A stretch of DNA of 10,273 nucleotides, from the IMG/VR virus record IMGVR_UViG_2617270966_000009. One strand, 5' to 3'. Both the position numbers and the translations under genes were made by a program. A model generated the notes under the pieces. The model was given only the letters and a program-made list of their open reading frames with translations, had not been told where the DNA came from and did no database searches. This stretch comes from a virus (taxonomy: Duplodnaviria; Heunggongvirae; Uroviricota; Caudoviricetes). Shown here one piece after another: positions 1 through 10,273 of this stretch (position 1 is the stretch's first letter; each line of letters starts with the position of its first letter).

Positions 1-1254
1 ATGCCAAAACTCACAGACATGCAGATCCGCGCATGGATAAAGGCCGGGGAGCGATTCGAGGGACGCTCTGACGGTAACGGGCTTTATCTTTCATACCGCG
101 AAAACTACCAGACCCCCGTCTGGCGATTCCGCTATAAATTCGCAGGGAAACCCCGCGCCATGCTGATTGGCTCATATGCCGAGCTATCACTATCAAAGGC
201 CAGAGAGACAGCCAAAGAGCTATCGGCTCGCGTTGCGCTGGGCTATGACGTTGCAGGAGAGAAGCAGAAGCGCAAAACCGAAGCACTGGCGAAGATGGAA
301 GCAGAGAAGAACGCTATGCGCGTTTCAGAGCTTGCCGCTGAATACTTTGAGCGTCAGATCCTCCCGCGCTGGAAGCACCCCGATATACTCCGCCGCCGTA
401 TCGACAAAGATATAAACCCATGCATTGGCAGCATGAAGGTGGAGGACGTGAAGCCGCGCCATATCGACGACATGCTGAAAAGTATTGTTGACCGTGGAGC
501 GCCGACCATAGCAACGGACGTTCTGCGCTGGACACGCCGCATATTTGACTACGGCATTAAGCGGCACGCACTGGAGATTAACCCGTGTTCAGCCTTTGAG
601 GTGGCAGACGCCGGAGGGAAAGAAGTTTCCCGCGACCGCTGGTTAACACGTGGCGAACTAATCCGACTGTTTCAGTCTATGCGCACGGCTAAGGGATTCA
701 GCCGTCAGAACGAAATCACGTTCAAATTACTGTTAGCGTTATGCGTCCGCAAAATGGAGTTATGCGCCGCCCGCTGGGAGGAGTTCGATTTTGATAAAGC
801 CGTATGGCATTTACCAGAGGAACGCAGCAAAAACGGCGACGCTATAGACATCCCATTAGCACCGCCAGCCGTCGAATGGCTGAGAGAGCTTAAAACGTTC
901 TCATGCAACAGCGCATGGGTGCTTCCAGCCAGGAAGATGCAAAACAGAATGATCCCACATATTCAGGAAAGCACTTTACCCGTAGCACTGGCTAAGGTTC
1001 GCGCTGAAATGCCTGATGTGCCTAATTTCACGATTCACGACTTCCGACGCACCGCACGTACTCATTTAGCAGCGCTGGGCGTTGATCCGGTAGTCGCAGA
1101 AAGATGCCTTAATCACAAAATTAAAGGCGTGGAAGGTATCTATAACCGTCACCAGTATTTTGATGAGCGTAAAGCGGCGCTGGCGCAGTGGTGTGATTTG
1201 CTGGTGGCACTGGAAAGCGGAAAAGACTACAACGTAACGCCAATCAGAGCATGA
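1..1254 (+). CDS. int: Tyrosine-type site-specific integrase, phage P4 / CP4-57 family
   Basis: 417-aa ORF. N-terminus (KLTD.QIRAWIKAG...GLYL...WRFRYKF.GK.....GSY..LSL..AR) matches the arm-binding N-terminal domain pattern of P4-like integrases as I recall it. C-terminus carries the catalytic signature HDFRRT ... LNHK ... GIYNRHQY (R-H-R-Y tyrosine recombinase core). ATG at position 1, so the att site and any tRNA target lie upstream, outside the window. Confidence 0.9.
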   Translation: MPKLTDMQIRAWIKAGERFEGRSDGNGLYLSYRENYQTPVWRFRYKFAGKPRAMLIGSYAELSLSKARETAKELSARVALGYDVAGEKQKRKTEALAKMEAEKNAMRVSELAAEYFERQILPRWKHPDILRRRIDKDINPCIGSMKVEDVKPRHIDDMLKSIVDRGAPTIATDVLRWTRRIFDYGIKRHALEINPCSAFEVADAGGKEVSRDRWLTRGELIRLFQSMRTAKGFSRQNEITFKLLLALCVRKMELCAARWEEFDFDKAVWHLPEERSKNGDAIDIPLAPPAVEWLRELKTFSCNSAWVLPARKMQNRMIPHIQESTLPVALAKVRAEMPDVPNFTIHDFRRTARTHLAALGVDPVVAERCLNHKIKGVEGIYNRHQYFDERKAALAQWCDLLVALESGKDYNVTPIRA

Positions 1255-1272
1255 TGAGAGGAAAGATTCATA

Positions 1273-2223
1273 ATGAAATTACCTGCGCATAAATATTATT
1301 CTTTGGATAAAGCAGCCAAACTGGCCGGATGTGAAGTATCCGATTTAATACACTATGCAGCAATTGGGGTTTTAGAAATATGTATAAAAATTCCACCTAT
1401 TGAATTGTTTTACCATTACCCCAAAAATGAAGATGCCGACCCAGAATTACTTAAAGTTGAAACAGATAGTATTTTTCATATAGATACAAAAGCAGCACAT
1501 GAGAATTATCTTCTTAATCTGAGCAATGAGGCAGATAATCTCGAATCATATGGCTTATCACCGCTTGATTATAAAAATAGCGATAACCATATGTATTTTA
1601 TGAGGTTTTCATACAAATCAGAACATTTCTCAGTTATAGAGCGATACAATGTTGGGAAGGATGAAAGAGATATCGAAAGATGGAACGGTCTATTAGCAAT
1701 TCCGTCTGCGTTCATAGATAACGATGAGCGGGAGCTATCAGAATGGGATGATTGGGAGATCTCCGTATGCGAACTGACGCCTCCGAGATGTGACGAGTTT
1801 AGCAAATCGAATAATTATGAAATCGGAGCTTTTTATATTGACGGCTGGTATGAAATAAGCCGAAATAAAATGTATATAACTGACTATGAATACAATCTTC
1901 TTATAAATGGAGGAAAATATATTTATGACAGACCCATGCACAAACCACCCGCAAACAAGTTATCCAATGATATAAATACGCTAAAAGTTAATAAACGTGC
2001 CGAACGGTACGCAGTCAATAGGGAGAAACTATTAAAATCTGCAATTTATATACTTAGTAAGTATCCAAATGAATGCAGGGGAGTAAGGAAAGAAATAAGC
2101 CCTGAGAAGTGGCGTGACTGTCTTGTTCGTCATTTAGACGAAGTTCCACCACTTATGATAACTAATGAAGATGTAATTCTTAAACAGCTGCGATCTGCGG
2201 CAAATGGCAAAGTGGATAGTTAA
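1273..2223 (+). CDS. Hypothetical protein, AT-rich orphan gene with putative N-terminal HTH-like segment; function unknown
   Basis: 316-aa ORF starting 19 nt after the int stop, with GAGAGG upstream of the ATG. Composition is clearly more AT-rich than its neighbours (hand count about 38% GC in the first 60 nt versus about 55% at the start of int). N-terminus (YSLDKAAKLAGCEVSDLIHYAAIG) resembles an excisionase/MerR-type helix-turn-helix; the rest is rich in Y/N/K/E/D with no motif I recognise. Followed by a hairpin plus T-run at 2234-2261. Confidence 0.75.
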   Translation: MKLPAHKYYSLDKAAKLAGCEVSDLIHYAAIGVLEICIKIPPIELFYHYPKNEDADPELLKVETDSIFHIDTKAAHENYLLNLSNEADNLESYGLSPLDYKNSDNHMYFMRFSYKSEHFSVIERYNVGKDERDIERWNGLLAIPSAFIDNDERELSEWDDWEISVCELTPPRCDEFSKSNNYEIGAFYIDGWYEISRNKMYITDYEYNLLINGGKYIYDRPMHKPPANKLSNDINTLKVNKRAERYAVNREKLLKSAIYILSKYPNECRGVRKEISPEKWRDCLVRHLDEVPPLMITNEDVILKQLRSAANGKVDS

Positions 2224-2233
2224 CTTGCTATAG

Positions 2234-2261
2234 AGGTACTGCAAAATTACAGTACCTTTTC
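2234..2261 (+). terminator. Putative rho-independent terminator after the AT-rich gene
   Basis: Perfect 8-bp inverted repeat AGGTACTG (2234-2241) / CAGTACCT (2250-2257) with an 8-nt loop, followed by TTTT. The stem is AT-rich, so moderate strength. Confidence 0.5.
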
Positions 2262-2329
2262 ATTGTATATCTATACAGCTAGATTTCTCGTAACGAAGCA
2301 ACAACTACCGCTAAGAGGTTACGGGAATC

Positions 2330-2533
2330 ATGAACATCGACACTATCCCTACAAAAGGCTATATCAGACGCTTCCGCCTTGCTGAATTGCTGGGCGTTAG
2401 TGTTTCAACCATTGATCGCAAAGTTCGCAGCGGCTCGCTACCGCGCCCGGTAAAGCTGGGGGAGAAGATTACCGCCTTTGATGCGGTAGAGATTAATAAC
2501 TGGCTGGCGGAGCGCCGGGGAAAGGTGGCGTAA
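2330..2533 (+). CDS. alpA: AlpA-family phage transcriptional regulator (HTH_17-type)
   Basis: 67-aa ORF with RBS AAGAGG upstream. LAELLGVSVSTIDRKVRSGSLPRPVKLGEK...AFDAVEINNWLAER matches the AlpA/excisionase-like HTH pattern (ligand-free HTH followed by a conserved W). Position after int is the canonical AlpA location in PICIs and CP4-57-like islands. Confidence 0.85.
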   Translation: MNIDTIPTKGYIRRFRLAELLGVSVSTIDRKVRSGSLPRPVKLGEKITAFDAVEINNWLAERRGKVA

Positions 2534-2967
2534 TGAAAAAGAAAAACCGCCCCGTACAGCAGGCGGCTAACTCAGATATTCGCACGTCTGATATTACGCC
2601 GACCACCAGCCCGGTACAAGTACCTAAGCGAACCCCAAAGAAACACCGCGCCCGCGTCTATATGCTGCGTACTGGCGTAGAGGGATGGACAGAAAACGAC
2701 ATTCTGCGATATTGCCGCCTTTCATCTGGAAGGAACTACGCCAGCGAGTTAGAGCGCAGGCTTGATATTCAGCTTGAGCGTATAGACGAAAAGAACCCCG
2801 ACGGGATAGGGTCACATTTACGCTATCGCTTTACCGGGCGCGGTGACGTTCTAAAAGTTATTCGGCTTGTGAACCATAACGCCGACGCTGGCGGCTATCA
2901 GGGACTTTCTCAGCCTGAAATTGCCGACATTCTCAACCTATACCCGGACAATCTCACCGCCGCCTAA
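2533..2967 (+). CDS. Hypothetical protein with basic, low-complexity N-terminus
   Basis: 144-aa ORF whose ATG overlaps the alpA stop (TAATG), indicating translational coupling. N-terminal 40 residues are rich in K/R/P/T. No recognisable catalytic motif. Confidence 0.65.
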   Translation: MKKKNRPVQQAANSDIRTSDITPTTSPVQVPKRTPKKHRARVYMLRTGVEGWTENDILRYCRLSSGRNYASELERRLDIQLERIDEKNPDGIGSHLRYRFTGRGDVLKVIRLVNHNADAGGYQGLSQPEIADILNLYPDNLTAA

Positions 2968-2979
2968 CGGAGACTGAAA

Positions 2980-3813
2980 ATGAACATCGAAAAAAGCAGA
3001 TTAATTTCTGAGGCCGCCCCTCATCTGAACGCCTATCAGGGCACAATTAACGGTAATGAATTTGCCGCAATTGTCCCGGTTATTCCTGGTCATATCGGTG
3101 GGCGTGAAACCAATATTGTTAGCGCAAAAGCGTTACACAAAGCGTTGGGCGTGGGAAAAGACTTCTCTACATGGATCACTGATCGCATCTCTGAATATGA
3201 CTTCACCATTGGGCACGATTACTCAGTCCATAAAACAATTTCCCCAAATTTGGGGAAAAGCCCGAATGGCGCGGCTTACAGCAAGATTAAGCAGTCTGGC
3301 AGACCCGGCAAAGACTATCTGTTAAGTGTCGGAATGGCGAAAGAACTGGCAATGATCGAACGCAATGATCAGGGTCGCGCTATCCGCCGTTATTTCATCC
3401 AGTGCGAGGAAGAATTACAGCGTAGCGTGCCTGAAATCGCCGCCCGCTATCGTCGCCAGCTAAAAGCCCGTATCAGTGCCGCAAACAACTTTAAGCCAAT
3501 GTGCGATGCGCTGAATATGGCCCGTGCCGAGATGGGTAAAGCGACGCAGCAGCGCCACTACAGCAACGAGAGCAACATGATCGCCCGTATCGTGCTGGGT
3601 GGCATGACGGCGAAGCAGTGGGCGCAGGCAAATGGCATTACTGGCGAACCACGGGACAGCATGAACGCAGCACAGCTTGAACACCTCGCCTATCTCGAAA
3701 GCACCAATATCACGTTAATTGATATGGGCATGGAATATGAGCAGCGCAAAGGAGAACTCCCCCGCCTGTCGCAACGCTGGCTCGCTAAACGTCTGGAGGT
3801 AAACCATGCGTAA
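2980..3813 (+). CDS. Phage antirepressor / regulatory protein-like (Bro-N / KilA-N / Rha / AntA-type N-terminal domain)
   Basis: 277-aa ORF with RBS GGAGA 7 nt upstream. N-terminal region (NEFAAIVPVIPGHIGG...NIVSAKALHKALGVGKDFSTWITDRI...DYLLSVGMAKELAMIERNDQGRAIRRYFIQCEEEL) has the layout of phage antirepressor-type DNA-binding domains. The exact family cannot be resolved by eye. Confidence 0.7.
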   Translation: MNIEKSRLISEAAPHLNAYQGTINGNEFAAIVPVIPGHIGGRETNIVSAKALHKALGVGKDFSTWITDRISEYDFTIGHDYSVHKTISPNLGKSPNGAAYSKIKQSGRPGKDYLLSVGMAKELAMIERNDQGRAIRRYFIQCEEELQRSVPEIAARYRRQLKARISAANNFKPMCDALNMARAEMGKATQQRHYSNESNMIARIVLGGMTAKQWAQANGITGEPRDSMNAAQLEHLAYLESTNITLIDMGMEYEQRKGELPRLSQRWLAKRLEVNHA

Positions 3814-3988
3814 CCATAATCCGATGCCGGGAAGCCGTTACAAGGACAGTCACGGGGCTGTAGTGACCGTACAGCGCGTCGAGCATAACCGAGTGACCTT
3901 TTACCGCGAGGGCTATCAGTCGCCATGTGTTCAGCCTTTGGAGAGATTCGTTAATGAGTTCGTGGAGGTGCGCCGTGATACTGAATGA
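3806..3988 (+). CDS. Small hypothetical protein (60 aa)
   Basis: ATG at 3806 overlaps the stop of the upstream gene (ATGcgTAA) and is preceded by GGAGGT, suggesting translational coupling. Resembles small conserved prophage proteins, but I cannot name the family with confidence. Confidence 0.5.
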   Translation: MRNHNPMPGSRYKDSHGAVVTVQRVEHNRVTFYREGYQSPCVQPLERFVNEFVEVRRDTE

Positions 3989-4160
3989 ACCTGCCGCCCA
4001 GAAAGAAGCCTTTAATCTGGCTAGCCTGTTAACAAATGTTAACCCTTACAACCTTATAAAACCAAAGGTCGCGAACGGCTGCCTGTTATCAATTGTTATG
4101 GTTAATGACTTAGCAAAACTTAGCCTGAACCTCACAAAACCTGACATCCACGCACGGGGA
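3989..4160 (+). promoter_or_regulatory. Putative promoter/operator region for the downstream replication operon
   Basis: GTTAACAAATGTTAAC at 4028-4043 is two palindromic GTTAAC hexamers spaced exactly 10 bp centre to centre. It is followed by CCTTACAACCTTA and a TATAAA box (4055-4060). No convincing sigma70 -35 at canonical spacing, which would fit an activator-dependent promoter. The call is weak because a long open + frame runs through this region. Confidence 0.3.
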
Positions 4161-4694
4161 ATGACGACAAATGATGACATTTTAAACCAAGAAATAATCA
4201 CCTCTAAAAAGCTGATTGTGGGGAATAAATTCCCCCTGCTGGCTGGTGGTATGAACTGGATTGCTACCGTTGTGAACCGTTCCACATCGACTTTCGCGAC
4301 AAATACGCGTGCGCTGGAAGATTTATTAGGGGTCGTTACGCGAGAAGGTGAGTATTCGGAGTCCATAAAAAAGGGCTTGCCGACTATCGCCAACCCGGTT
4401 TATGGTTATAGCGCACCAGCAAAATCTGGTGCCGGGATTGGCGTCCTGATAATGTTACAGGCGACACATGACGCGCCGAGCGTCTTTTTTTGTGTCCTCG
4501 CATCTGCACACCTCTTTCCCAGCGATATGGCTATAGCCCATATTGCTCAAAAAGTAATGGTGGGCTGGATGGGGGCGGAGCGATCCGCGCCGGTTTCCTG
4601 TAACGCCGGTTACGCCAACCCTGTTCAGCTCACCACCAGTGAAATTGGCGTTTCCGGTGGTGGGAATAAATCCCAGTTACAGGAGGCTGCCATA

Positions 4695-4886
4695 ATGGCT
4701 ACTACCCCTACCCAAAAACCGCAATTTATCTGGATTATCGCAGCAGTTCGCCGCGATATGCCGACAATTACCGCCAAAATTCACCATATCGCCGCAGAGA
4801 CTGAGCAGGAAGCCCGCCGCATTCTGGCGCGGGATCACGTTTGCTTTTTTGCCGGACGTATTCGCACAGGGGGCGCACATGCTTAA
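4695..4886 (+). CDS. Small satellite protein, possibly Icd-like (host cell division inhibitor-like); 5' boundary uncertain
   Basis: Strong AGGAGG 7 nt upstream of ATG 4695 (MATTPTQKPQFIWIIAAVRRDMP...). The same frame is open back to 3927 with in-frame ATGs at 4161, 4527 and 4557, so the true product may be longer or there may be two in-frame products. The upstream segment MVGWMGAERSAPVSCNAGYANPV resembles what I recall of Ash-family proteins; this is unverified. Confidence 0.5.
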   Translation: MATTPTQKPQFIWIIAAVRRDMPTITAKIHHIAAETEQEARRILARDHVCFFAGRIRTGGAHA

Positions 4887-5058
4887 TTACTTCCGTGTTG
4901 CAGGATGCGCCACCGCCCGGAGCGGCGAATTAGTCGAGTTCGTTTATATCGTTGACGCCCGCAGCGCGATCAGCGCCAAAGCTGAGGCGCTAAATCAGGC
5001 CAGAAATGAACGCCTTTCCCACATCCAGATTACCCGCATTCGTGAGGTGGCAGCATGA
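4879..5058 (+). CDS. Small hypothetical protein (about 59 aa)
   Basis: ATG at 4879 preceded by AGGGGG and overlapping the stop of the upstream ORF (ATGCTTAA). The six-frame track start at 4849 lacks an RBS. Part of a chain of coupled small genes upstream of the primase. Confidence 0.5.
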   Translation: MLNYFRVAGCATARSGELVEFVYIVDARSAISAKAEALNQARNERLSHIQITRIREVAA

Positions 5059-5318
5059 ACATAACTACCATCTACCGCCACCCGGCAGAGCTGGAAGCCG
5101 AAGCGATGCTATCTCGCAAAGAATCATACCCGGATGATTTTACGCTGGCAGACCGAACAGCAGAACGCATGACCCGCGCCCGCAATGGGCTGGCTCACGT
5201 TATGACCGATTTATTACCACTCCTCGAAGTTGAGCAAGCAGCCATCGCGTATTGCTGGCTGAGTAAAGTCCTGACGATTGTCGATATAGCCAGAATTGAT
5301 GCGGAGGGCAGCGCATGA
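5055..5318 (+). CDS. Small hypothetical protein (87 aa)
   Basis: ATGA start/stop overlap with the upstream gene at 5055-5058. Acidic protein with no recognisable motif. Confidence 0.55.
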   Translation: MNITTIYRHPAELEAEAMLSRKESYPDDFTLADRTAERMTRARNGLAHVMTDLLPLLEVEQAAIAYCWLSKVLTIVDIARIDAEGSA

Positions 5319-5372
5319 GCAACGCACCGACCATTAAATCGGGAAATGCCGCTGGCGCACTGAGGGGGCGAC

Positions 5373-5714
5373 ATGATTACTAAAAATTTCCGACTGAATG
5401 CGCTGGCGAATAAGTATGCGTCGGCACTGTATAACCACATTACCTCCACCAGCGGCGGGGACTATTTCATGGTTGATGCGGACGGCCTCGCCGTCCGTGT
5501 GGAAATCGTCAATGGAGTAAAAGGCGTTCGCAGTCTGATCGATAGCTACACACTGGCAGCCATGAAAGTGTCCTACCCGCAGTGGGAAACCGTGGGGGTC
5601 GAGCTTCTTGAGCGTTGCGTCACTAATGACGGATTGACTGACGTCGGGCGTGAGATATGGCAAAGCATGGTTAAAGACATGGGCGCGACCGTGGCAGGAG
5701 GCAACCATGCGTAA
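5373..5714 (+). CDS. Hypothetical protein (113 aa), immediately upstream of and coupled to the primase
   Basis: ATG at 5373 with GAGGGGG RBS (5362-5368). Stop TAA at 5712-5714 overlaps the primase ATG at 5707 (ATGcgTAA). Confidence 0.6.
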   Translation: MITKNFRLNALANKYASALYNHITSTSGGDYFMVDADGLAVRVEIVNGVKGVRSLIDSYTLAAMKVSYPQWETVGVELLERCVTNDGLTDVGREIWQSMVKDMGATVAGGNHA

Positions 5715-8148
5715 TATCGACCTTATCCGCGAAGTGACCAGTGCCGCCGCCGGGCGCTGGCCTTATGTGCTGGCTGGATTGTCTATCGACGTGCCTGATT
5801 CATCGCGCCGCCATTCTCCATGCCCTGCATGTGGTGGAAAAGACCGTTTCAGATTCGACGACAACGGGCGCGGTAGCTTTATCTGCAATCAGTGTGGCGC
5901 TGGTGACGGTTTAGACCTGATTAAGAAGGTGAACAACTGCGACACTACGGAGGCGGCACAGCTTGCCGCTGATGTGCTGGGTATTGATTACCGGGCAGCG
6001 GAAACCGCCCCGGTGGCAGCGAGCCATAGAAGAGAGCAACTGGAAGCTGACCGCCAGCAGCGTGAGCAGGAGCGCCAGAAACAGGCAGCAGAGGATGCAG
6101 AGCAGCGAAGGGCTACGTTTGCCCGTCTGTATGCCGGAATGCGCCAGAGTGCCACACAGGGAGAATCTGATTACCTGCAATCAAAAGGGCTGACCGGGTT
6201 TAACTATCCGGTTATGCCGGATGGTTCGTTATTGCTGGAGCTGGTGGACGAATCCGGCGCAGTGGCAGCAGCGCAAACCATTACACCGCAGGGAGAGAAG
6301 CGACTCCTGACAGGTTCAGCAAAGCGCGGGGCATATCACGCCGTAAACGCACCAGAACAGCCGCAGAGCGTATTAATTGCCGAGGGGCTGGCTACGGCCC
6401 TGTCCGTTCACCTGATGCGCCCGGACGCGCTTACAGTGGCGGCAATTGACGCCGGGAACCTGATCCACGTTGCCAGAGTAATGCGCCGGGAACACCCGCA
6501 GTCGCAAATTATCATTGCCGCAGATAACGACCACCAGCAGGACGAACAGGCGAACACGGGCAAAGATGCCGCAGAGAAAGCCGCCTTATCCGTGGCTGGC
6601 TGGGTGGCGCTGCCGCCGACAGACTACAAAGCCGACTGGGACGACTACCGCCAGCAAAACGGGCTGGAAGTCGCTACGGCTGCGTTTAACGATTCGATGT
6701 ACCAGATTCAGGGGGAAGCCGTGAAACCACAACTACAGGCCATTGTGGGCGGTAAATCCCGCCGTAAAGCCGAAGTCGGAGATATTGCACAAATGGCAGC
6801 CAGCCAGAAAGCGCGGTTGCTTTCATCTCGCTGGGATATGTTGGCGGTCAACCCTGATAGTGGCGCTGTTTACTGCTACGAATCTGGCGTATGGGTGAAG
6901 CTACCAGACAGCGAATTAGAAAGGGTTATGGTGGCAATTTTCGACGAGCACGAAGCCCACTACACCGAAAAAGGGATTAAATCGGTTGTCGCAACCATGA
7001 AGCTGCAAATACCGGTAATTGGTGAGCGGAGCGGGGATCTGATTGGTTTTGATAACGGCGTTTATGACCTCGCTACGCAGACGTTTTCCGCCCATTCGCC
7101 GGGTAACTGGCTGATGAACCACAATGGGATCACCTACACCCCGCCAGCGCTGGGGGAAAATATTACCACCAGCGCCCCCAATTTTACCCGTTGGCTGAAT
7201 CATGCAACGGCTGGCGACCATCATAAGGCCGAGCGTATCAAAGCAGCCTTGTTTATGGTGCTGGCGAAGCGTCACGACTGGCAGCTATTCATTGAGATAA
7301 CTGGCGAGGGCGGCAGTGGGAAATCCGTATTCAGCAGCATAGCAACCACGCTGGCAGGTGAACACAACACCGCCAGCGGTAGCATGATGACGCTGGACAC
7401 CGCACGGGGACGGGCGCAGTTCGTAGGAAAAAGCCTGATTATTATGCCTGACCAGACCCGCTATGTTGGAGAGGGTGCGGGGATTAAAGCCATTACGGGC
7501 GGCGATCCGGTAGAGATTGATGGGAAATATGAAAAGCAGTTCACAACCGTGATAAATGCCGTTGTTATGGCAACCAATAACGAGCCGATGACATTCACGG
7601 AGCGAAACGGGGGCATTGCCCGCCGCCGCGTGATATTCCCGTTTAATAACCCGGTATCAGACGCAGACAAAGACCCGGATTTAACCGCAAAAATCAGGCG
7701 AGAAATCCCGGTGATTATCCGCCACCTGCTAACCACCTTTGCCGACCAGAACAAAGCAAAGGCACTATTACTAGAGCAGCGCGATTCGCAGGAGGCGCTA
7801 GAGGTTAAACGCGGCACGGATCCGGTTGTCGATATGTGTGCGGCGCTTTTTTTCATGAACGAACCCAAAGGCATGATGATGGGCGGAGGTACATGGGCAG
7901 GCCAGCCAGAGCCGAGGACGTATCTTTATCATCTTTATCTGGCGTTTATGGAGTATCACGGTTTGGGTAAACCGCTTTCCGTCAATAAGTTTTCACGCGC
8001 CATAAAATCAGCAGCAAAAGAGTACCGAGCCAGCTACCTGACGAGAAGCATTAACGGCAGAGCGCAAACCAACGTTGGCTATAACGAGAAGGCTGAGGAG
8101 TTCATGCCACGCGCTTACGGTGTGGAGAGCGGGCAGAGTGATGATTGA
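5707..8148 (+). CDS. Replication primase-helicase: primase Zn-ribbon + Toprim + phage/plasmid primase P4-family / D5-like SF3 NTPase
   Basis: Preferred start ATG 5707 with CAGGAGG 5 nt upstream; the track's longer ORF begins at a GTG at 5650 without an RBS. Zn-ribbon CPACGG...CNQCG at 5821-5895. Acidic Toprim-like IIIAADNDHQQDE with DND at 6523-6531. Walker A GEGGSGKS at 7303-7326. Size (813 aa) and domain order match P4 alpha-like and PICI pri-rep proteins. Confidence 0.9.
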   Translation: MRNIDLIREVTSAAAGRWPYVLAGLSIDVPDSSRRHSPCPACGGKDRFRFDDNGRGSFICNQCGAGDGLDLIKKVNNCDTTEAAQLAADVLGIDYRAAETAPVAASHRREQLEADRQQREQERQKQAAEDAEQRRATFARLYAGMRQSATQGESDYLQSKGLTGFNYPVMPDGSLLLELVDESGAVAAAQTITPQGEKRLLTGSAKRGAYHAVNAPEQPQSVLIAEGLATALSVHLMRPDALTVAAIDAGNLIHVARVMRREHPQSQIIIAADNDHQQDEQANTGKDAAEKAALSVAGWVALPPTDYKADWDDYRQQNGLEVATAAFNDSMYQIQGEAVKPQLQAIVGGKSRRKAEVGDIAQMAASQKARLLSSRWDMLAVNPDSGAVYCYESGVWVKLPDSELERVMVAIFDEHEAHYTEKGIKSVVATMKLQIPVIGERSGDLIGFDNGVYDLATQTFSAHSPGNWLMNHNGITYTPPALGENITTSAPNFTRWLNHATAGDHHKAERIKAALFMVLAKRHDWQLFIEITGEGGSGKSVFSSIATTLAGEHNTASGSMMTLDTARGRAQFVGKSLIIMPDQTRYVGEGAGIKAITGGDPVEIDGKYEKQFTTVINAVVMATNNEPMTFTERNGGIARRRVIFPFNNPVSDADKDPDLTAKIRREIPVIIRHLLTTFADQNKAKALLLEQRDSQEALEVKRGTDPVVDMCAALFFMNEPKGMMMGGGTWAGQPEPRTYLYHLYLAFMEYHGLGKPLSVNKFSRAIKSAAKEYRASYLTRSINGRAQTNVGYNEKAEEFMPRAYGVESGQSDD

Positions 8149-8164
8149 AACTTTTACGGCGGCA

Positions 8165-8415
8165 CTTATCCCTACTGCCCTACTAAAAACGAGACGAGGC
8201 CAGACGTAGCAAGGCTTTAAACTAGGTAGGGATATATATTTTTATCCCTACTTATCCCTACATATCCCTACCAAATAAAACAGGCAGTAAAATGCCGTTG
8301 AAGTGATTTAGTAGGGATAAGTAGGGTTATGTAGGGCAACAAAATTGAATGCCTACCAGTCTGAAAGCCTTGCCATTCGTGGCATGAGCCAGTTAGTAGG
8401 GATTGGTAGGGATAT
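8165..8415. repeat. Iteron cluster, putative origin of replication of the element
   Basis: At least 11 copies of a GTAGGG(A/T)T-type motif, mostly in phased arrays with exact 10-bp spacing. Minus-orientation copies (CCCTAC) at 8170-8175, 8178-8183 and three tandem TATCCCTAC at 8244-8272. Plus-orientation copies at 8226-8232, three at 8311-8336 and two at 8396-8411. Located directly downstream of the primase-helicase gene, the canonical ori position in PICIs. Confidence 0.7.
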
Positions 8416-8485
8416 TACACCCCCAAAAAGATTCTATGGGGGGGTGAGCTTAAAACGAAACTTGTCAAAACTTGACACACAGAAC

Positions 8486-8520
8486 GATGCCAGCAGCTAC
8501 TGAGCGGCGGCATTTTTTTG
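8486..8520 (+). terminator. Possible weak terminator downstream of the primase operon
   Basis: Short imperfect stem (ATGCC ... GGCAT) followed by a run of seven T at 8514-8520. The stem is weak, so this is tentative. Confidence 0.25.
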
Positions 8521-8582
8521 TGCTATTTGTTTCATATTTTGCAATTACGGTGATAAATATTGCTATTTGTGAAACTATAATA
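8518..8582 (+). promoter_or_regulatory. Putative promoter with flanking direct repeats upstream of the small-protein / metallopeptidase operon
   Basis: Perfect -10 hexamer TATAAT at 8576-8581. Exact 10-mer direct repeat TGCTATTTGT at 8521-8530 and 8561-8570 (40 bp apart), a candidate operator. The -35 is not obvious. A consensus TTGACA also occurs at 8471-8476. Confidence 0.35.
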
Positions 8583-8613
8583 ACTGTTGTTTTATACAGT
8601 TCTAAGGGGCGTT

Positions 8614-8787
8614 ATGGCTATTTCAGTAAAGCCGGTATTGATAAGTGAGAAGCAAATGGAAGCGATAAAGAAAATTCAGGAGGAGCAGCGTAAAAAATCA
8701 GAGGTAGGAGTTGCGCCAACGATCCACGAAATTGCTCGGGGATTAATGGATAAGGCGCTGGCCTCACTGGCAAGCGAGGGCGCGTAA
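8614..8787 (+). CDS. Small protein (57 aa), possible ribbon-helix-helix-type DNA-binding protein / antitoxin-like
   Basis: ATG at 8614 with AAGGGG RBS; the track's longer ORF begins at a TTG at 8587. Predicted short N-terminal strand (SVKPVLISEKQ) followed by helical segments. Stop TAA overlaps the ATG of the next gene (TAATG at 8785-8789). The fold assignment is an inference, not a motif match. Confidence 0.5.
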   Translation: MAISVKPVLISEKQMEAIKKIQEEQRKKSEVGVAPTIHEIARGLMDKALASLASEGA

Positions 8788-9458
8788 TGGGCGCCATTCA
8801 CCAGATATATGAGCATGAAATGTTCTATAACTGGATAGGTGATGGTAAACGATGTGTAGCATTCCACGAAGCGGGACATGCAGTAGCTGCATGGCTTATT
8901 CGCTTAGATATACAGGTTATCGCCGTTATGGATGAATACGGTTACGTTGCTGGCGAACATGTACATGAGGCCAAGTGTTTGGGCGTTGTTAAACACAGCA
9001 TAATTCACAGCCACGATCTCGGGCGTTTGCGGGATAGTAAATCTGGTGTAGTTGGGCAGAATGGTAAAGTTATCCCTTTCATACGTTACTATGCGGATGG
9101 TATAAAGCGCGATGCAAAAAAGGCCGCTTTTGTATCCCTCGCCGGACCAGTAAGCGAAGCCCTTTACGAAAACAACGATATTTTCAACAAAAAGTATTCG
9201 CTACCTCATCGCTATGACATGGCTAACGTAAATGACATGCTCGATTTAATCTGCGCTACAGATAAGCAAATTAACAGGGAGTTAATGCTTTCTAAACTCG
9301 TTGAAAAGACCAAAGCCCTCATGGCTCAATACTGGTATGAAGTAGAAAAAATAGCGCATTTGCTTGAACGGGATAGCATTGTGAATGGTCGAAATGTTAG
9401 CTCGTTAATTGGCATCAACGTCATAGACCGGGCAACGCCATTTTTGCTGGTGGAATAA
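8787..9458 (+). CDS. Standalone zinc metallopeptidase-like protein with HEAGH motif (FtsH/M41-like or ImmA-like active site)
   Basis: 223-aa ORF, translationally coupled to the upstream small gene. Contains VAFHEAGHAVAAWL (HEAGH encoded at 8865-8879), which closely resembles the FtsH peptidase M41 zinc-binding site; acidic residues downstream could supply the third ligand. No AAA+ ATPase domain is present. GC content is visibly lower than the replication genes. Confidence 0.7.
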   Translation: MGAIHQIYEHEMFYNWIGDGKRCVAFHEAGHAVAAWLIRLDIQVIAVMDEYGYVAGEHVHEAKCLGVVKHSIIHSHDLGRLRDSKSGVVGQNGKVIPFIRYYADGIKRDAKKAAFVSLAGPVSEALYENNDIFNKKYSLPHRYDMANVNDMLDLICATDKQINRELMLSKLVEKTKALMAQYWYEVEKIAHLLERDSIVNGRNVSSLIGINVIDRATPFLLVE

Positions 9459-9671
9459 CTCCCGACCAAACTCATTCGATGATTCATTTCTCCACGGGTA
9501 AGCTATGCCGGTAGACCTAACTCCGCAGTATTACCGGAATCAGCCAGGCTACAGGCACACAGGAGGCCACGCAACACAATCCGCGCCTGGATGGGAGTTA
9601 TATAATACCCCTGATGATTTTGACCAACGCCCACCATTCGACGATGAAACGCCATTCTGGGGGAGATAAAC

Positions 9672-9953
9672 ATGGTAAACGACAGTAAAGCCGAGGATCT
9701 GGAAGCAAAAGGGCTGTACCGACGCGCCGCAGCGCGATGGATGGAAGTCATGCTGTTATGCACCGAGGACGATGATCGGGAATGGATAAAGCGCCGCCGT
9801 GAAACGTGTCTTGAGAACGTGAAGCGCCCGCCCGTGAAGGCTGAGGACTTTGGCGACCTGCATAAAGCTGTTACCGAAACGCAACACCGCATGGGGATAG
9901 CGCAACCGAACGGTAACGCCTTCCGGTTAAATGGCGGCAATAGGCAAAGGTAG
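9672..9953 (+). CDS. PerC/Pch-like small transcriptional regulator (tentative)
   Basis: 93-aa ORF with GGGGGAG RBS. AEDLEAKGLYRRAAARWMEVM...REWIKRRRETC resembles the conserved core I recall from PerC-family (Pch) regulators encoded on prophage-like elements. Followed by a strong terminator. Confidence 0.55.
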   Translation: MVNDSKAEDLEAKGLYRRAAARWMEVMLLCTEDDDREWIKRRRETCLENVKRPPVKAEDFGDLHKAVTETQHRMGIAQPNGNAFRLNGGNRQR

Positions 9954-9965
9954 ACCACCAGTGGG

Positions 9966-10027
9966 GAGGGGCGGGGCAAATCCCTGCGGCCTGACGTCTT
10001 CCGGACTGCCCGCCCCATCGTTTTTTC
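9966..10027 (+). terminator. Rho-independent terminator
   Basis: GC-rich inverted repeat GGGGCGGGGCA (9968-9978) / TGCCCGCCCC (10007-10016), with inner pairing also possible, followed by TTTTTT at 10021-10026. Sits 13 nt after the PerC-like stop. Confidence 0.75.
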
Positions 10028-10087
10028 ATACCCGCGAAAAATGAAATTTAATCCGGGCGTGTTTCATCCTTCCAGAGGGTATGACGT

Positions 10088-10273
10088 ATGACACCACGCG
10101 AAATAGCCTTATTGACCATCGCCAAACTTGAGCACGGAGGCCACCAGCTTACACAGGCAGATCAACGGGAGATAGAACGCTCAGTTAATGCCGATATAGC
10201 CCGGCGCGACAGGTTCCGCGAAATGATGCGAGCACCTGCCTACCAGTGGAAGAAGCCAGCGCCGCGCAGGTAG
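10088..10273 (+). CDS. Small hypothetical protein (61 aa)
   Basis: ATG at 10088 with AGAGGG upstream; ORF closes with TAG at the very end of the window. Charged, helical-looking sequence with no recognisable motif. Confidence 0.4.
   Translation: MTPREIALLTIAKLEHGGHQLTQADQREIERSVNADIARRDRFREMMRAPAYQWKKPAPRR

Follow-up and report, generated by a model that had tools for sequence, protein, structure and literature searches.

Gram-negative phage-inducible chromosomal islands (PICIs) have been described as following a four-zone plan, with integration, Bro/immunity-RNA (C4/isrK), replication and late zones (PMC10111431), and AlpA is the master activator in those that have been characterised (PMC6092414, PMC11773190). 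For EcCIMP1 of E. coli MP1 (Pick et al. 2025), induction, excision, alpA dependence and Kapi1 transduction were shown experimentally (PMC11773190), and its PerC protein, EcCIMP1_025, repressed LEE1 expression in C. rodentium. The prototype E. coli PICI, EcCICFT073, illustrates an origin made of two iteron sets flanking an AT-rich region (PMC6092414). Two further reference Gram-negative PICIs, CfCIP10159 and EcCIRM13514 (Fillol-Salom 2018 set, re-mapped in PMC10111431), are bioinformatic predictions located in yicC, the 3′ end of which is also the target of the conjugatively mobilised islands MGIVmi1, MGIVflInd1 and SGI1-like (PMC8409611).

We analysed a stretch of 10,273 nucleotides, hereafter the window, and find it probable (roughly 0.8) that it represents 82% of a 12,566-bp Gram-negative PICI-type phage satellite of the EcCIMP1/CfCIP10159 lineage, located at the yicC 3′ end of an E. 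coli-type chromosome. The window is found as an exact match within a 144-kb E. coli-type contig, with yicC upstream and dinD downstream. All of its genes are on the plus strand in the order int, 316-aa gene, alpA, hypothetical gene, AntA, DUF4222, Ash/Icd, small genes, primase-helicase and origin, which confirms the conserved one-strand order proposed in an earlier note based on the sequence alone. That note also called the locus a PICI-like satellite, and this holds: the layout fits the four-zone plan of PMC10111431, and identities between the core proteins and their counterparts in the mobilised EcCIMP1 range from 60 to 100%. Its description of the window as an int-to-origin arm is right in that everything from the int ATG, the first base of the window, to the origin is included, but a further 1.9 kb extends past the origin. 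Furthermore, the order int, alpA, orf144, AntA, DUF4222, small genes, primase, PerC/RHH is repeated in about 20 IMG/VR loci.

Table 1. Features of the window (positions in the 10,273-nucleotide stretch).
Feature	Position	Strand	Basis or remark
P4-type tyrosine integrase (int)	1-1254	+	Pfam Arm-DNA-bind_3, Phage_int_M, Phage_integrase
316-aa protein	1273-2223	+	36% GC; variable int-alpA slot
Terminator-like hairpin after 316-aa gene	2236-2265	+	GGTACTG, 8-nt loop, CAGTACC, then TTTTCATT; read from sequence
AlpA-family regulator	2330-2533	+	Pfam Phage_AlpA 3.3e-8
144-aa conserved PICI protein	2533-2967	+	translationally coupled to alpA; EcCIMP1 counterpart 78% identical
AntA (Bro-network) anti-repressor-like protein	2980-3813	+	Pfam AntA 1.4e-21; PHROG anti-repressor Ant 1e-37
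DUF4222 small protein	3806-3988	+	Pfam DUF4222 1.4e-22; EcCIMP1 protein 70% identical
Long Ash/Icd ORF enclosing immunity RNAs	3975-4886	+	gene call; comparable to P4 cI region
a1/b1 target sites and isrK-like RNA (P4 seqA-type region)	4400-4490	+	ends in terminator
C4 / P4-CI-type antisense immunity RNA	4553-4640	+	Rfam C4 76.9 bits (gathering score 45)
a2/b2 target sites	4645-4684	+	complementarity to C4; b2 overlaps icd-like ribosome-binding site
Icd-like (host cell division inhibitor-like) ORF	4696-4886	+	first translated gene after RNA switch
Three small ORFs (59, 87, 113 aa) before primase gene	4879-5714	+	first two overlap
P4 alpha-type primase-helicase	5707-8148	+	Pfam zinc ribbon, Toprim, D5_N, DUF5906, Pox_D5
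Replication origin with iterons	8170-8411		11 GTAGGG(ATA) iterons, opposed sets, 10-bp spacing, around AT-rich DNA
Strong terminator hairpin closing replication operon	8478-8522	+	T7 run; -20.9 kcal/mol, z-score -4.6
Promoter-like module	8529-8599	+	17-nt dyad 8529-8545 / 8559-8575; TATAAT 8576-8581; LexA-box consensus CTGTTGTTTTATACAG 8584-8599
57-aa protein, first gene after origin	8614-8787	+	80% identical to EcCIMP1 gene at same position
Orphan FtsH-like (M41) zinc-protease domain without AAA+ module	8787-9458	+	HEAGH motif; variable cargo
PerC-family regulator	9672-9953	+	Pfam PerC 4.5e-30; 91% identical to EcCIMP1_025
61-aa conserved PICI protein	10088-10273	+	stop codon is window end

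Imperfect copies of the 3′ end of yicC mark both borders of the island. attL (CAGATTCAGAATATCGAGTAA), formed by the final 21 bp of yicC, stops 189 bp short of the int gene, and attR (CAGATTCAATATTGAGTAA) is found 2.1 kb downstream of the window. Together with the empty site in K-12, the two delimit the 12,566 bp. In the stretch holding the island the motif GGTGTAC occurs nine times (1.3 expected), with eight of the nine copies at the island ends: six arm-type matches precede the window by 32-82 bp and two are close to attR. The integration target is thus the 3′ end of yicC and not a tRNA; the attachment sites do lie outside the window, as had been proposed. Failure to find att repeats had been named beforehand as a possible refutation, and attL was found upstream and attR downstream. 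The flanks, also examined for prophage or plasmid genes, contain instead chromosomal housekeeping genes (rph and yicC on one side, dinD, yicG and ligB on the other), and we found no tRNA, prophage or plasmid context around the island. Unrelated strains carry the same island in yicC, and its core genes are all intact and 95-100% identical in another strain. CfCIP10159 and EcCIRM13514, compared by their att sequences alone, use the same target gene, and the attL flank of CfCIP10159 (...cagattcagaatATCGAGTAAGCtatcag...gggcttttttgttatcatgggctatcat...) is nearly identical to that of the island. The proposed synteny comparison with annotated PICIs gives a matching att region for CfCIP10159 and a matching gene order for EcCIMP1.

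Nine window proteins are 60-100% identical to EcCIMP1 proteins, among them AntA (92%), the 87-aa and 113-aa proteins (60% and 94%) and the 61-aa protein, which is 100% identical to both the EcCIMP1 and H1 proteins (WP_000188903.1). Both islands have alpA, the 144-aa gene, AntA, DUF4222, Ash/C4/Icd, small genes, primase, origin and RHH in the same order, followed by PerC, the 61-aa ORF, PRiA4_ORF3 and a 119-aa ORF, and C4 and isrK RNAs are common to both. In contrast, the integrases are just 28% identical and the AlpA proteins 36%, and EcCIMP1 integrates at tRNA-Thr. EcCIMP1 is also without the 316-aa protein and the M41-like protease, but has P22-type ejection-protein genes and an additional alpA. 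Of the other conserved proteins, the 144-aa protein goes under ‘PM1773 family protein’ in the annotation of one RefSeq genome, and the 113-aa protein matches phrog_37628.

The primase-helicase is recognised by the NCBIfam model ‘phage/plasmid primase, P4 family’ and is 38.5% identical to P4 alpha over its full length. Its N-terminal half is 72% identical to that of EcCIMP1, whereas the C-terminal part differs (D5_N/DUF5906 in the island, DUF927 in EcCIMP1). The EcCIMP1 origin is built on the same plan but from another iteron, GTTGGTTCA, and GTAGGG iterons are also present in relatives sharing the same primase as the island. GTAGGG is found 13 times in the window compared with 3.2 expected, 11 of the 13 fall within the origin, and none of 200 shuffled windows reached 13, indicating that the iteron origin proposed earlier is real. 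By its published description EcCICFT073 has, like the island, a unidirectional int-alpA-...-pri-ori arrangement with AlpA as activator and a two-iteron-set origin around an AT-rich region (PMC6092414).

Between DUF4222 and the primase gene, where the earlier note saw small coupled genes, there are indeed small ORFs, but this stretch also holds isrK-like and C4-like RNA genes, forming a P4-type RNA immunity locus that the note overlooked. The enclosing Ash/Icd ORF matches P4 bases 8195-8731, including the CDS annotated cI, at 39% (tblastn). A Pfam Phage_ASH match at aa 160-264 of the ORF 3927-4886, equivalent to nt 4404-4718, coincides with the RNA matches, and NCBIfam phage_ICD_like matches aa 267-314 of the long ORF (2.4e-19); in relatives the Icd-like ORF is a separate annotated 195-nt CDS. 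The isrK-like RNA (4413-4490) scores 75 bits in Rfam (gathering score 50) and has a terminator-like site at 4470-4484 followed by a T run, and the Rfam c4-a1b1 match, at 43.8 bits, is under its gathering score of 46.7. The C4-like RNA has a predicted fold of -45 kcal/mol, and C4 RNA is also found in P4 and in five of five related islands, EcCIMP1 included, with Rfam scores well above gathering. Complementarity to C4 is present both before and after this RNA: upstream in TTGGCGT (4438-4444) and GTTACAGG (4454-4461), and downstream in the a2 site TTGGCGT (4645-4651, with C4 4612-4618) and the b2 site GTTACAGGA (4676-4684, with the C4 loop 4596-4604), which precedes an ATG at 4696.

The slot between int and alpA is variable. 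Its 316-aa protein has an N-terminal Xis/MerR-like winged HTH, a beta-rich middle and a conserved C-terminal helical domain, and a relative with an int-adjacent member of this family was found inside a prophage late operon, the configuration of a helper-embedded PICI.

The accessory zone spans the 1.9 kb of the window past the origin and comprises the RHH, M41-like protease, perC and 61-aa genes. The segment holding the strong terminator, part of a terminator-to-LexA-box module, shows 91% mean column identity to EcCIMP1. EcCIMP1 likewise has the LexA-box consensus, and roughly 9% of complete E. coli genomes contain the surrounding 186-bp module; a LexA box at a post-origin promoter-like site has no mention in the literature searched. 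A parallel to this candidate box may be seen in operon I of SaPI, the packaging operon of staphylococcal PICIs, which is under LexA control (cited as reference 7 in PMC6092414). However, sequence and host are unrelated, and the downstream genes of the island are cargo and regulators, not terS or cpm. The 57-aa protein, with no match in Pfam, PHROG or phage searches, is putatively ribbon-helix-helix-like (RHH), as read from its sequence. The M41-like protein has profile matches to FtsH at both ends, and all significant matches of its AF2 model are FtsH-family AAA proteases (FtsH, AFG3L2, YME1, FtsHi; TM-score about 0.5). Its gene is missing or replaced in relatives.

We recognised no capsid, packaging or terminase-redirecting gene in the 12.6-kb island, and specifically no terS, rpp, capsid-remodelling gene or cos site; the check for packaging-redirection or capsid genes downstream that the note had suggested was negative. 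No P2/P4 cos was seen even at three mismatches and lambda cosN gave no significant match, while EcCICFT073 uses cos packaging with Rpp. With no capsid, packaging or cos element found, it is from homology only that we infer helper dependence. These same absences, and a late zone without the helper late genes present in EcCIMP1, would fit a decayed or helper-independent integrative replicon, maintained by vertical inheritance or plasmid-like replication after loss of phage packaging. Under the conservative rules of SatelliteFinder, int, alpA and primase alone define a ‘Type C PICI’, a class ambiguous to its authors; the island would be classed as Type C, which also fits. We consider such decay improbable, as the core genes, att sites and arm repeats are intact, yicC is occupied in unrelated strains and empty in K-12, and the core is common to a proven mobilisable PICI.

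A canonical P4-like satellite, with a P2-like helper whose capsid is remodelled via Sid, Psu and Delta, is close to refuted. P4 homology is extensive: both have an arm-binding tyrosine integrase (25% identity), an AlpA-family ORF88 (34%), a CI/seqA-type RNA locus lying within an ORF that precedes the replication genes (39% over the C4 and isrK region), with the C4, isrK and a1b1 RNAs in the same order, and an alpha primase-helicase with iterons adjoining. Because alpA, the RNA locus and the primase are homologous to those of P4, the label ‘P4-like’ given earlier is fair. Nonetheless, neither tblastn nor Pfam matched sid, delta, psu or epsilon to any part of the 12.6-kb island, a P2-type cos is absent, int lies at the left reading inward, unlike in P4, AntA, DUF4222 and PerC are extra, and the nearest relatives are PICIs. 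The shared yicC 3′ end (PMC8409611) could suggest an integrative mobilisable element that hijacks a conjugative plasmid or ICE to spread, as MGIVmi1, MGIVflInd1 and the SGI1-like islands do. We give this little credence, since Pfam identified no relaxase, MobI, TraG, TraN or SgaCD homologue, reference PICIs also use yicC, and AlpA, Bro proteins, C4 RNA and primase are the PICI/P4 kit. PHROG matches for many proteins, and plasmid locations for 16 of 2944 E. coli matches, might point to a full-size prophage or plasmid, a reading of negligible probability that is already refuted by the flanks: the att repeats are separated by 12.6 kb and lie between yicC and dinD, and Pfam and PHROGs revealed no structural, lysis or conjugation genes in the island.

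For the PICI-type satellite, the integrase would recombine a core of about 20 bp, restoring the last yicC codons, and would use the GGTGTAC arm sites at both ends. By analogy with P1 c4 and P4 CI, quiescence may be maintained by C4 pairing through its loop and 3′ single-stranded stretch with a1/b1 and a2/b2; this pairing, with b2 covering the icd-like ribosome-binding site, would block translation and lead to early termination of the small-genes-to-primase operon. As in EcCICFT073, EcCIMP1 and P4, a helper phage would switch on alpA, AlpA would activate the rightward operon, and the RNA block would be overcome as the Ash-like frame is read through and translated, so that the island excises and replicates. 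The primase-helicase would then fire the adjoining iteron origin, as suggested by the pri-ori tests of EcCICFT073; the AntA-type protein may lift the repression of a resident helper prophage, and excised island DNA would be packaged into helper capsids.

Taken together, these results indicate that the PICI call is right and that the island is of an already known, ordinary type, as it is closely like EcCIMP1, which has been shown to ride a helper phage. Its swappable genes would sit in two slots, one between int and alpA and the other after the origin, behind a conserved module of terminator, TATAAT and LexA box.

Contig JNPY01000001.1 (assembly GCA_000703545.1), which we found through an exact look-up of the primase protein, contains the whole window without a mismatch, at positions 4295-14567 of the 22-kb contig locus L004. 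Upstream in this locus lie the chromosomal genes dut, slmA, pyrE, rph and yicC; downstream, PRiA4_ORF3, a minus-strand ORF of 119 aa and a DinD paralogue are followed by chromosomal dinD, yicG, ligB, gmk, rpoZ and spoT. By aligning both junctions with the uninterrupted yicC-dinD interval of K-12, we located attL (CAGATTCAGAATATCGAGTAA; L004 4085-4105) at the end of yicC and attR (CAGATTCAATATTGAGTAA; L004 16653-16671), beyond which normal K-12 sequence follows. These junctions define an island of 12,566 bp, of which the window makes up 82%. Furthermore, the heptamer GGTGTAC has nine matches in L004 against 1.3 expected, eight of which lie no farther than 130 bp from an att site, and these repeats at both island ends look like integrase arm sites.

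An earlier note had read the window as the integrase-to-origin arm of a PICI-like or P4-like phage satellite, and had named beforehand two observations that would speak against it: missing att repeats, and flanks belonging to a full-size prophage or a plasmid. We found att repeats at both island ends, with the 3′ end of yicC as the target, and chromosomal genes on both the yicC and the dinD side, and both results favour the satellite-island reading. The start of the window at the int ATG and the single-strand gene order described in that note are borne out by a six-frame ORF list and family scans, which place every gene on the plus strand, and the window runs 1.9 kb beyond the origin. A tRNA gene as the target was rejected: the window contains no tRNA according to ARAGORN, and in the near-identical island L001 the DNA upstream is annotated as yicC, again with no tRNA.

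Features of the window, and identity of its proteins to those of EcCIMP1
Feature	Position	Strand	Basis or remark	Identity to EcCIMP1
int	1-1254	+	Pfam Arm-DNA-bind_3, Phage_int_M, Phage_integrase	28%
orf316 (316 aa)	1273-2223	+	36% GC; without family match	
alpA	2330-2533	+	Downstream of int; Pfam Phage_AlpA, 3.3e-8	36%
orf144 (144 aa)	2533-2967	+	Coupled to alpA; ORF list	78%
AntA	2980-3813	+	Family scan	92%
DUF4222	3806-3988	+	Family scan	70%
Long ORF (Ash/Icd)	3975-4886	+	Phage_ASH and Icd-like matches; family scans	47-62%
a1/b1 target motif	4400-4452		Rfam 43.8 bits, just below gathering score 46.7	
isrK-like RNA	4413-4490		Rfam 75 bits, gathering score 50	
C4 antisense RNA	4553-4640		Rfam 76.9 bits, gathering score 45	
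Three small ORFs	4879-5714	+	ORF list	
87-aa ORF				60%
113-aa ORF				94%
Primase-helicase	5707-8148	+	Zinc ribbon, Toprim, D5_N, DUF5906; 'phage/plasmid primase, P4 family'	72% (residues 1-348, N-terminal half)
Iteron origin	8170-8411		Adjoins primase gene; 11 GTAGGG copies	
Terminator hairpin			In the 190-bp stretch; -20.9 kcal/mol, z-score -4.6	
17-nt dyad			In the 190-bp stretch	
TATAAT	8576-8581			
LexA box, consensus CTGTTGTTTTATACAG	8584-8599		Predicted from sequence	
RHH-like protein (57 aa)	8614-8787	+	RHH is a reading of the sequence	80%
223-aa HEAGH protein	8787-9458	+	Overlaps RHH gene	
PerC	9672-9953	+	Family scan	91%
61-aa ORF		+	Ends at the window's final base	100%

Other E. coli chromosomes carry the same island, 95-98% identical, at yicC. 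Of 5426 complete E. coli genomes, 23 contain at least 80% of the window and 2078 (38%) some part of it; of the 2944 matches that parts of the window have in E. coli, 16 are on plasmids rather than chromosomes. The DinD paralogue lies in the island just inside attR (L004 15717-16541) and shares 85% amino-acid identity with the chromosomal dinD product (16892-17716). No CTGT-N8-ACAG box accompanies the island gene, and chromosomal dinD is preceded by one. The paralogue is missing from the related islands L005 and L006, and the region of a third, L007, is without any annotated dinD.

A close, experimentally characterised relative is EcCIMP1, the PICI of E. coli MP1, which excises only with its helper phage Kapi1, requires alpA and int, and is specifically transduced (Pick et al. 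2025, PMC11773190). We took the EcCIMP1 proteins from the MP1 chromosome and compared them one by one with those of the window. The two elements share the order orf144, AntA, DUF4222, Ash/Icd, 87-aa, 113-aa, primase, RHH, PerC and 61-aa ORF, and beyond the window EcCIMP1 and L001 have a single PRiA4_ORF3 protein accession in common. In EcCIMP1-like elements the antirepressor, Ash and primase are conserved and int, AlpA and PerC are variable (PMC11773190), and the identities of AntA, Ash/Icd, the primase N-terminal half and PerC make the island EcCIMP1-like. The same one-strand order recurs in about 20 IMG/VR loci whose primases are roughly 70% identical or more. A preprint by Mageeney et al. 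lists reference PICIs in yicC, and its supplementary att files lead to CfCIP10159 and EcCIRM13514; the attL flank of CfCIP10159 is nearly identical to that of the island.

Gram-negative PICIs are organised in four ordered zones (Mageeney et al. 2023, PMC10111431). Of the features that mark them (Fillol-Salom et al. 2018; Mageeney et al. 2023), the island has int leftmost reading inward with rightward, unidirectional genes, an AlpA-family regulator downstream of int, Bro proteins with C4 and isrK RNAs between alpA and the replication genes, pri-rep followed by an origin with two iteron sets around AT-rich DNA, and, at 12,566 bp, a size within about 10-20 kb with a specific att and no structural or lysis genes, none being recognised by Pfam or PHROG. 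All the PICI features that can be read from sequence are present in the island. We infer its dependence on a helper, and likewise its packaging route; helper-dependent induction, interference and packaging into phage particles, a further mark of such PICIs, have been shown in the relative EcCIMP1 only.

The earlier note had proposed looking downstream for packaging-redirection or capsid genes; with the three ORFs beyond the window included, PHROGs and Pfam recognised no packaging, structural, terS, rpp, ppi or capsid gene among the called island ORFs of at least 57 aa. SatelliteFinder Types A and B call for at least four of five core components, packaging or capsid morphogenesis among them; beyond int, alpA and pri-rep none was recognised in the island, and by SatelliteFinder's published description it would be an ambiguous 'Type C'. 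A P4-like satellite is favoured by the homology of int (25%), alpA (34%, to ORF88) and primase (38.5% over its whole length) to their P4 counterparts. P4-like satellites are, however, defined by seven core genes (int, psu, delta, sid, alpA, epsilon, alpha), and the psu-delta-sid operon and epsilon are missing here: no island protein gave a tblastn match to sid, delta, psu or epsilon, and none carried the corresponding Pfam families. Furthermore, the P2/P4 cos site had no match with up to three mismatches allowed, and lambda cosN matched at chance level only. With int, alpA and alpha shared and the late genes and cos missing, the island has the early and replication operon in common with P4 and lacks the late-operon features that define P4-like satellites. 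The yicC site is also taken by conjugatively mobilised islands (PMC8409611), and the yicC integrative mobilisable elements (MGIVmi1, MGIVflInd1, SGI1-like) are marked by mobilisation genes or an oriT; no Pfam family of such genes (mobI, mpsA/traG/traN/sgaC) was found in any island ORF. Collectively, the observation in the earlier note is confirmed and its interpretation supported. The island belongs to a known and catalogued kind, which makes the finding an ordinary one; with the family catalogued and one close relative characterised experimentally, the island call itself adds little, and its practical worth is as a map, with borders fixed at the yicC 3′ end.

Concealed within the long 'Ash' ORF is a P4-type RNA immunity switch that the earlier note overlooked. 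Rfam models for C4 and isrK detect P4 CI and seqA relatives in the Bro zone of PICIs (PMC10111431), and in the window all three Rfam features fall inside this ORF. The loop of the C4 hairpin (4596-4604) is complementary to GTTACAGGA (4676-4684), a site that overlaps a GGAGG lying 12 nt ahead of the icd-like ATG at 4696, and also to GTTACAGG (4454-4461). In addition, TTGGCGT, which occurs at 4645-4651 and 4438-4444, is the complement of the single-stranded ACGCCAA at 4612-4618. This layout of a1/b1, c4, a2/b2 and icd is that of P1 immI, and P4 gives the same three Rfam matches in the same order, its cI region aligning at 39% with the long ORF. C4 and isrK were also found in five of five related islands tested, EcCIMP1 included. 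The RNA genes and their complementary targets are established, as are the island borders, the homology and synteny with EcCIMP1 and P4, the architecture of the origin and the two variable slots described below; by analogy with P4, the C4 RNA would silence the icd-to-primase operon until AlpA-driven transcription overrides it.

The Phage_ASH match (4404-4718), which precedes the Icd-like match (4725-4868), falls on exactly the same bases as the isrK-like, a1/b1 and C4 features, and because of this shared span the protein-family signal may largely reflect conservation at the RNA level. The 'ash family protein' is a RefSeq pseudogene in EcCIMP1 and in L005.

The claim of an iteron origin after the primase gene is upheld by the enrichment of GTAGGG, with 11 of the 13 hexamers in the window within 8170-8411, 3.2 expected window-wide and none of 200 shuffles reaching 13. 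The iterons form opposed sets at 10-bp spacing with AT-rich DNA between them, and two iteron sets around AT-rich DNA are the origin design of E. coli PICIs (PMC6092414). In place of GTAGGG iterons, EcCIMP1 carries three GTTGGTTCA repeats at about 12830-13420 of its locus (L003), followed by an AT-rich spacer and then three copies in inverted orientation. This difference parallels that in the C-terminal part of the primase (DUF927 in EcCIMP1 versus D5_N/DUF5906 in the window), and together they look like a swap of a cognate initiator and origin.

The island has two variable slots, whose cargo here is a hypervariable Xis-HTH protein by int and, behind the origin, an orphan FtsH-like protease. 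Between int and alpA, the slot proteins of three yicC islands are just 21-28% identical to one another and have in common an HTH at the N terminus and, at the C terminus, a conserved block. For the orf316 family, 47 homologues were found across Enterobacterales, all unnamed, with swapping of modules; of 12 close IMG/VR relatives, 7 matched its profile in this slot, and five have unrelated ORFs of about 200 aa there, apparently of two kinds. In Enterobacter and Buttiauxella, too, homologues directly follow a P4-type int, and the Enterobacter island that carries one sits inside a prophage late operon. The family (1273-2223; L011 10001-10963 and L013 10001-10954 in related loci), unnamed and fast-diverging, comes directly after a P4-type integrase in every context examined, and the PICI-like islands concerned belong to several genera. 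Two related yicC islands, L006 (5289-5355) and L007 (5269-5334), have the Rfam int-alpA RNA motif RF02996 in the gap that separates int from the slot gene; it is absent from the window, where the gap from int to the 316-aa gene is 18 nt.

That PICIs have an accessory region behind pri has been noted before (PMC11364771). In relatives of the island this post-origin zone holds RHH with the 223-aa protein, a hypothetical protein with SSB, or SSB with an M41-like gene, and in EcCIMP1 it holds ejection-protein genes. The 223-aa protein has a HEAGH motif and profile matches to FtsH at both of its ends, and every significant structural match of its model is an FtsH-family AAA protease; it is a stand-alone FtsH-type protease domain. 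This orphan M41 domain (8787-9458) keeps HEAGH intact with no AAA+ module, and M41-like proteases 74-99% identical occur in E. coli, Salmonella, Enterobacter, Shigella and Dickeya. A phage origin of the 57-aa RHH protein was rejected as unsupported, tblastn against 50,697 phage records giving no match.

PADLOC recognised no known defence system in the 316-aa protein, the protease or the small ORFs; its sole match, a weak one, was the candidate-defence family PDC-S22 to the C-terminal half of AntA (aa 165-266, E = 4.5e-11). A PDB sequence search gave no match for the 113-aa and 144-aa proteins, and for PRiA4_ORF3 its sole match was a structure titled 'hypothetical protein'. Likely defence cargo is present in related islands: one of them, embedded in a prophage, has a 576-aa reverse transcriptase (RVT_1; L011 18272-20002) at its far end, and another has an Abi_2 gene upstream of int (L014 1059-2021).

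Between the iterons and the RHH gene, a 190-bp stretch shows 91% mean column identity to EcCIMP1, whereas the iterons and downstream genes around it differ. Within it, the predicted LexA box lies 2 nt past TATAAT and 30 nt ahead of the first post-origin gene. The pattern CTGT-N8-ACAG occurs twice in the 22-kb L004 against 0.24 expected by chance, the second copy being the known LexA box before chromosomal dinD; such patterns total 24 over 1.24 Mb of fetched loci. EcCIMP1 has a CTGT-N8-ACAG box 30-31 nt before its RHH start, and two more distant IMG/VR loci (L025 and L026) have one at the same position with a different spacer, CTGTATCGTTATACAG. Furthermore, 476 of 5426 complete E. coli genomes carry the 186 bp that surround the box as a module at least 90% identical, and its chromosomal position varies among several; the box itself was read in only a few of these copies. 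In one 90%-identical copy, TATAAT and the box are intact, the dyad has drifted, and ejection-protein genes follow.

The promoter-like module spans 8529-8599 (L004 12823-12893). More LexA-type boxes, CTGTATG(A/C)ATA(G/A)ACAG, were seen in the IMG/VR relatives L025 (4297), L079 (2665) and L026 (9733), near the end of int or just past the primase gene, and they hint that other cargo slots may respond to SOS too. A second LexA-like site of the window, in the alpA leader (2263-2278), has one mismatch; we dropped it because it is unconserved in relatives and within chance expectation.

From these sequence patterns, we put at about 0.4 the probability that the post-origin zone of this widespread PICI lineage is wired directly to the host SOS response, with LexA binding at the predicted box a matter of inference only. 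No mention of LexA control of Gram-negative PICIs was found in the main papers on these elements or by full-text search; a passage in PMC6092414 cites SaPI operon I as being under LexA control. Under SOS control of the post-origin zone, the Xis-HTH protein beside int could be a second, helper-specific determinant.

If the LexA box works, the regulation of Gram-negative PICIs would gain a direct input from SOS. In that case these islands would sense DNA damage themselves, beyond the sensing of a helper by AlpA, as SaPI operon I does, and through the SOS switch they would express cargo that can be swapped, such as the orphan FtsH-like protease and PerC of this island and, elsewhere, P22-type ejection proteins.
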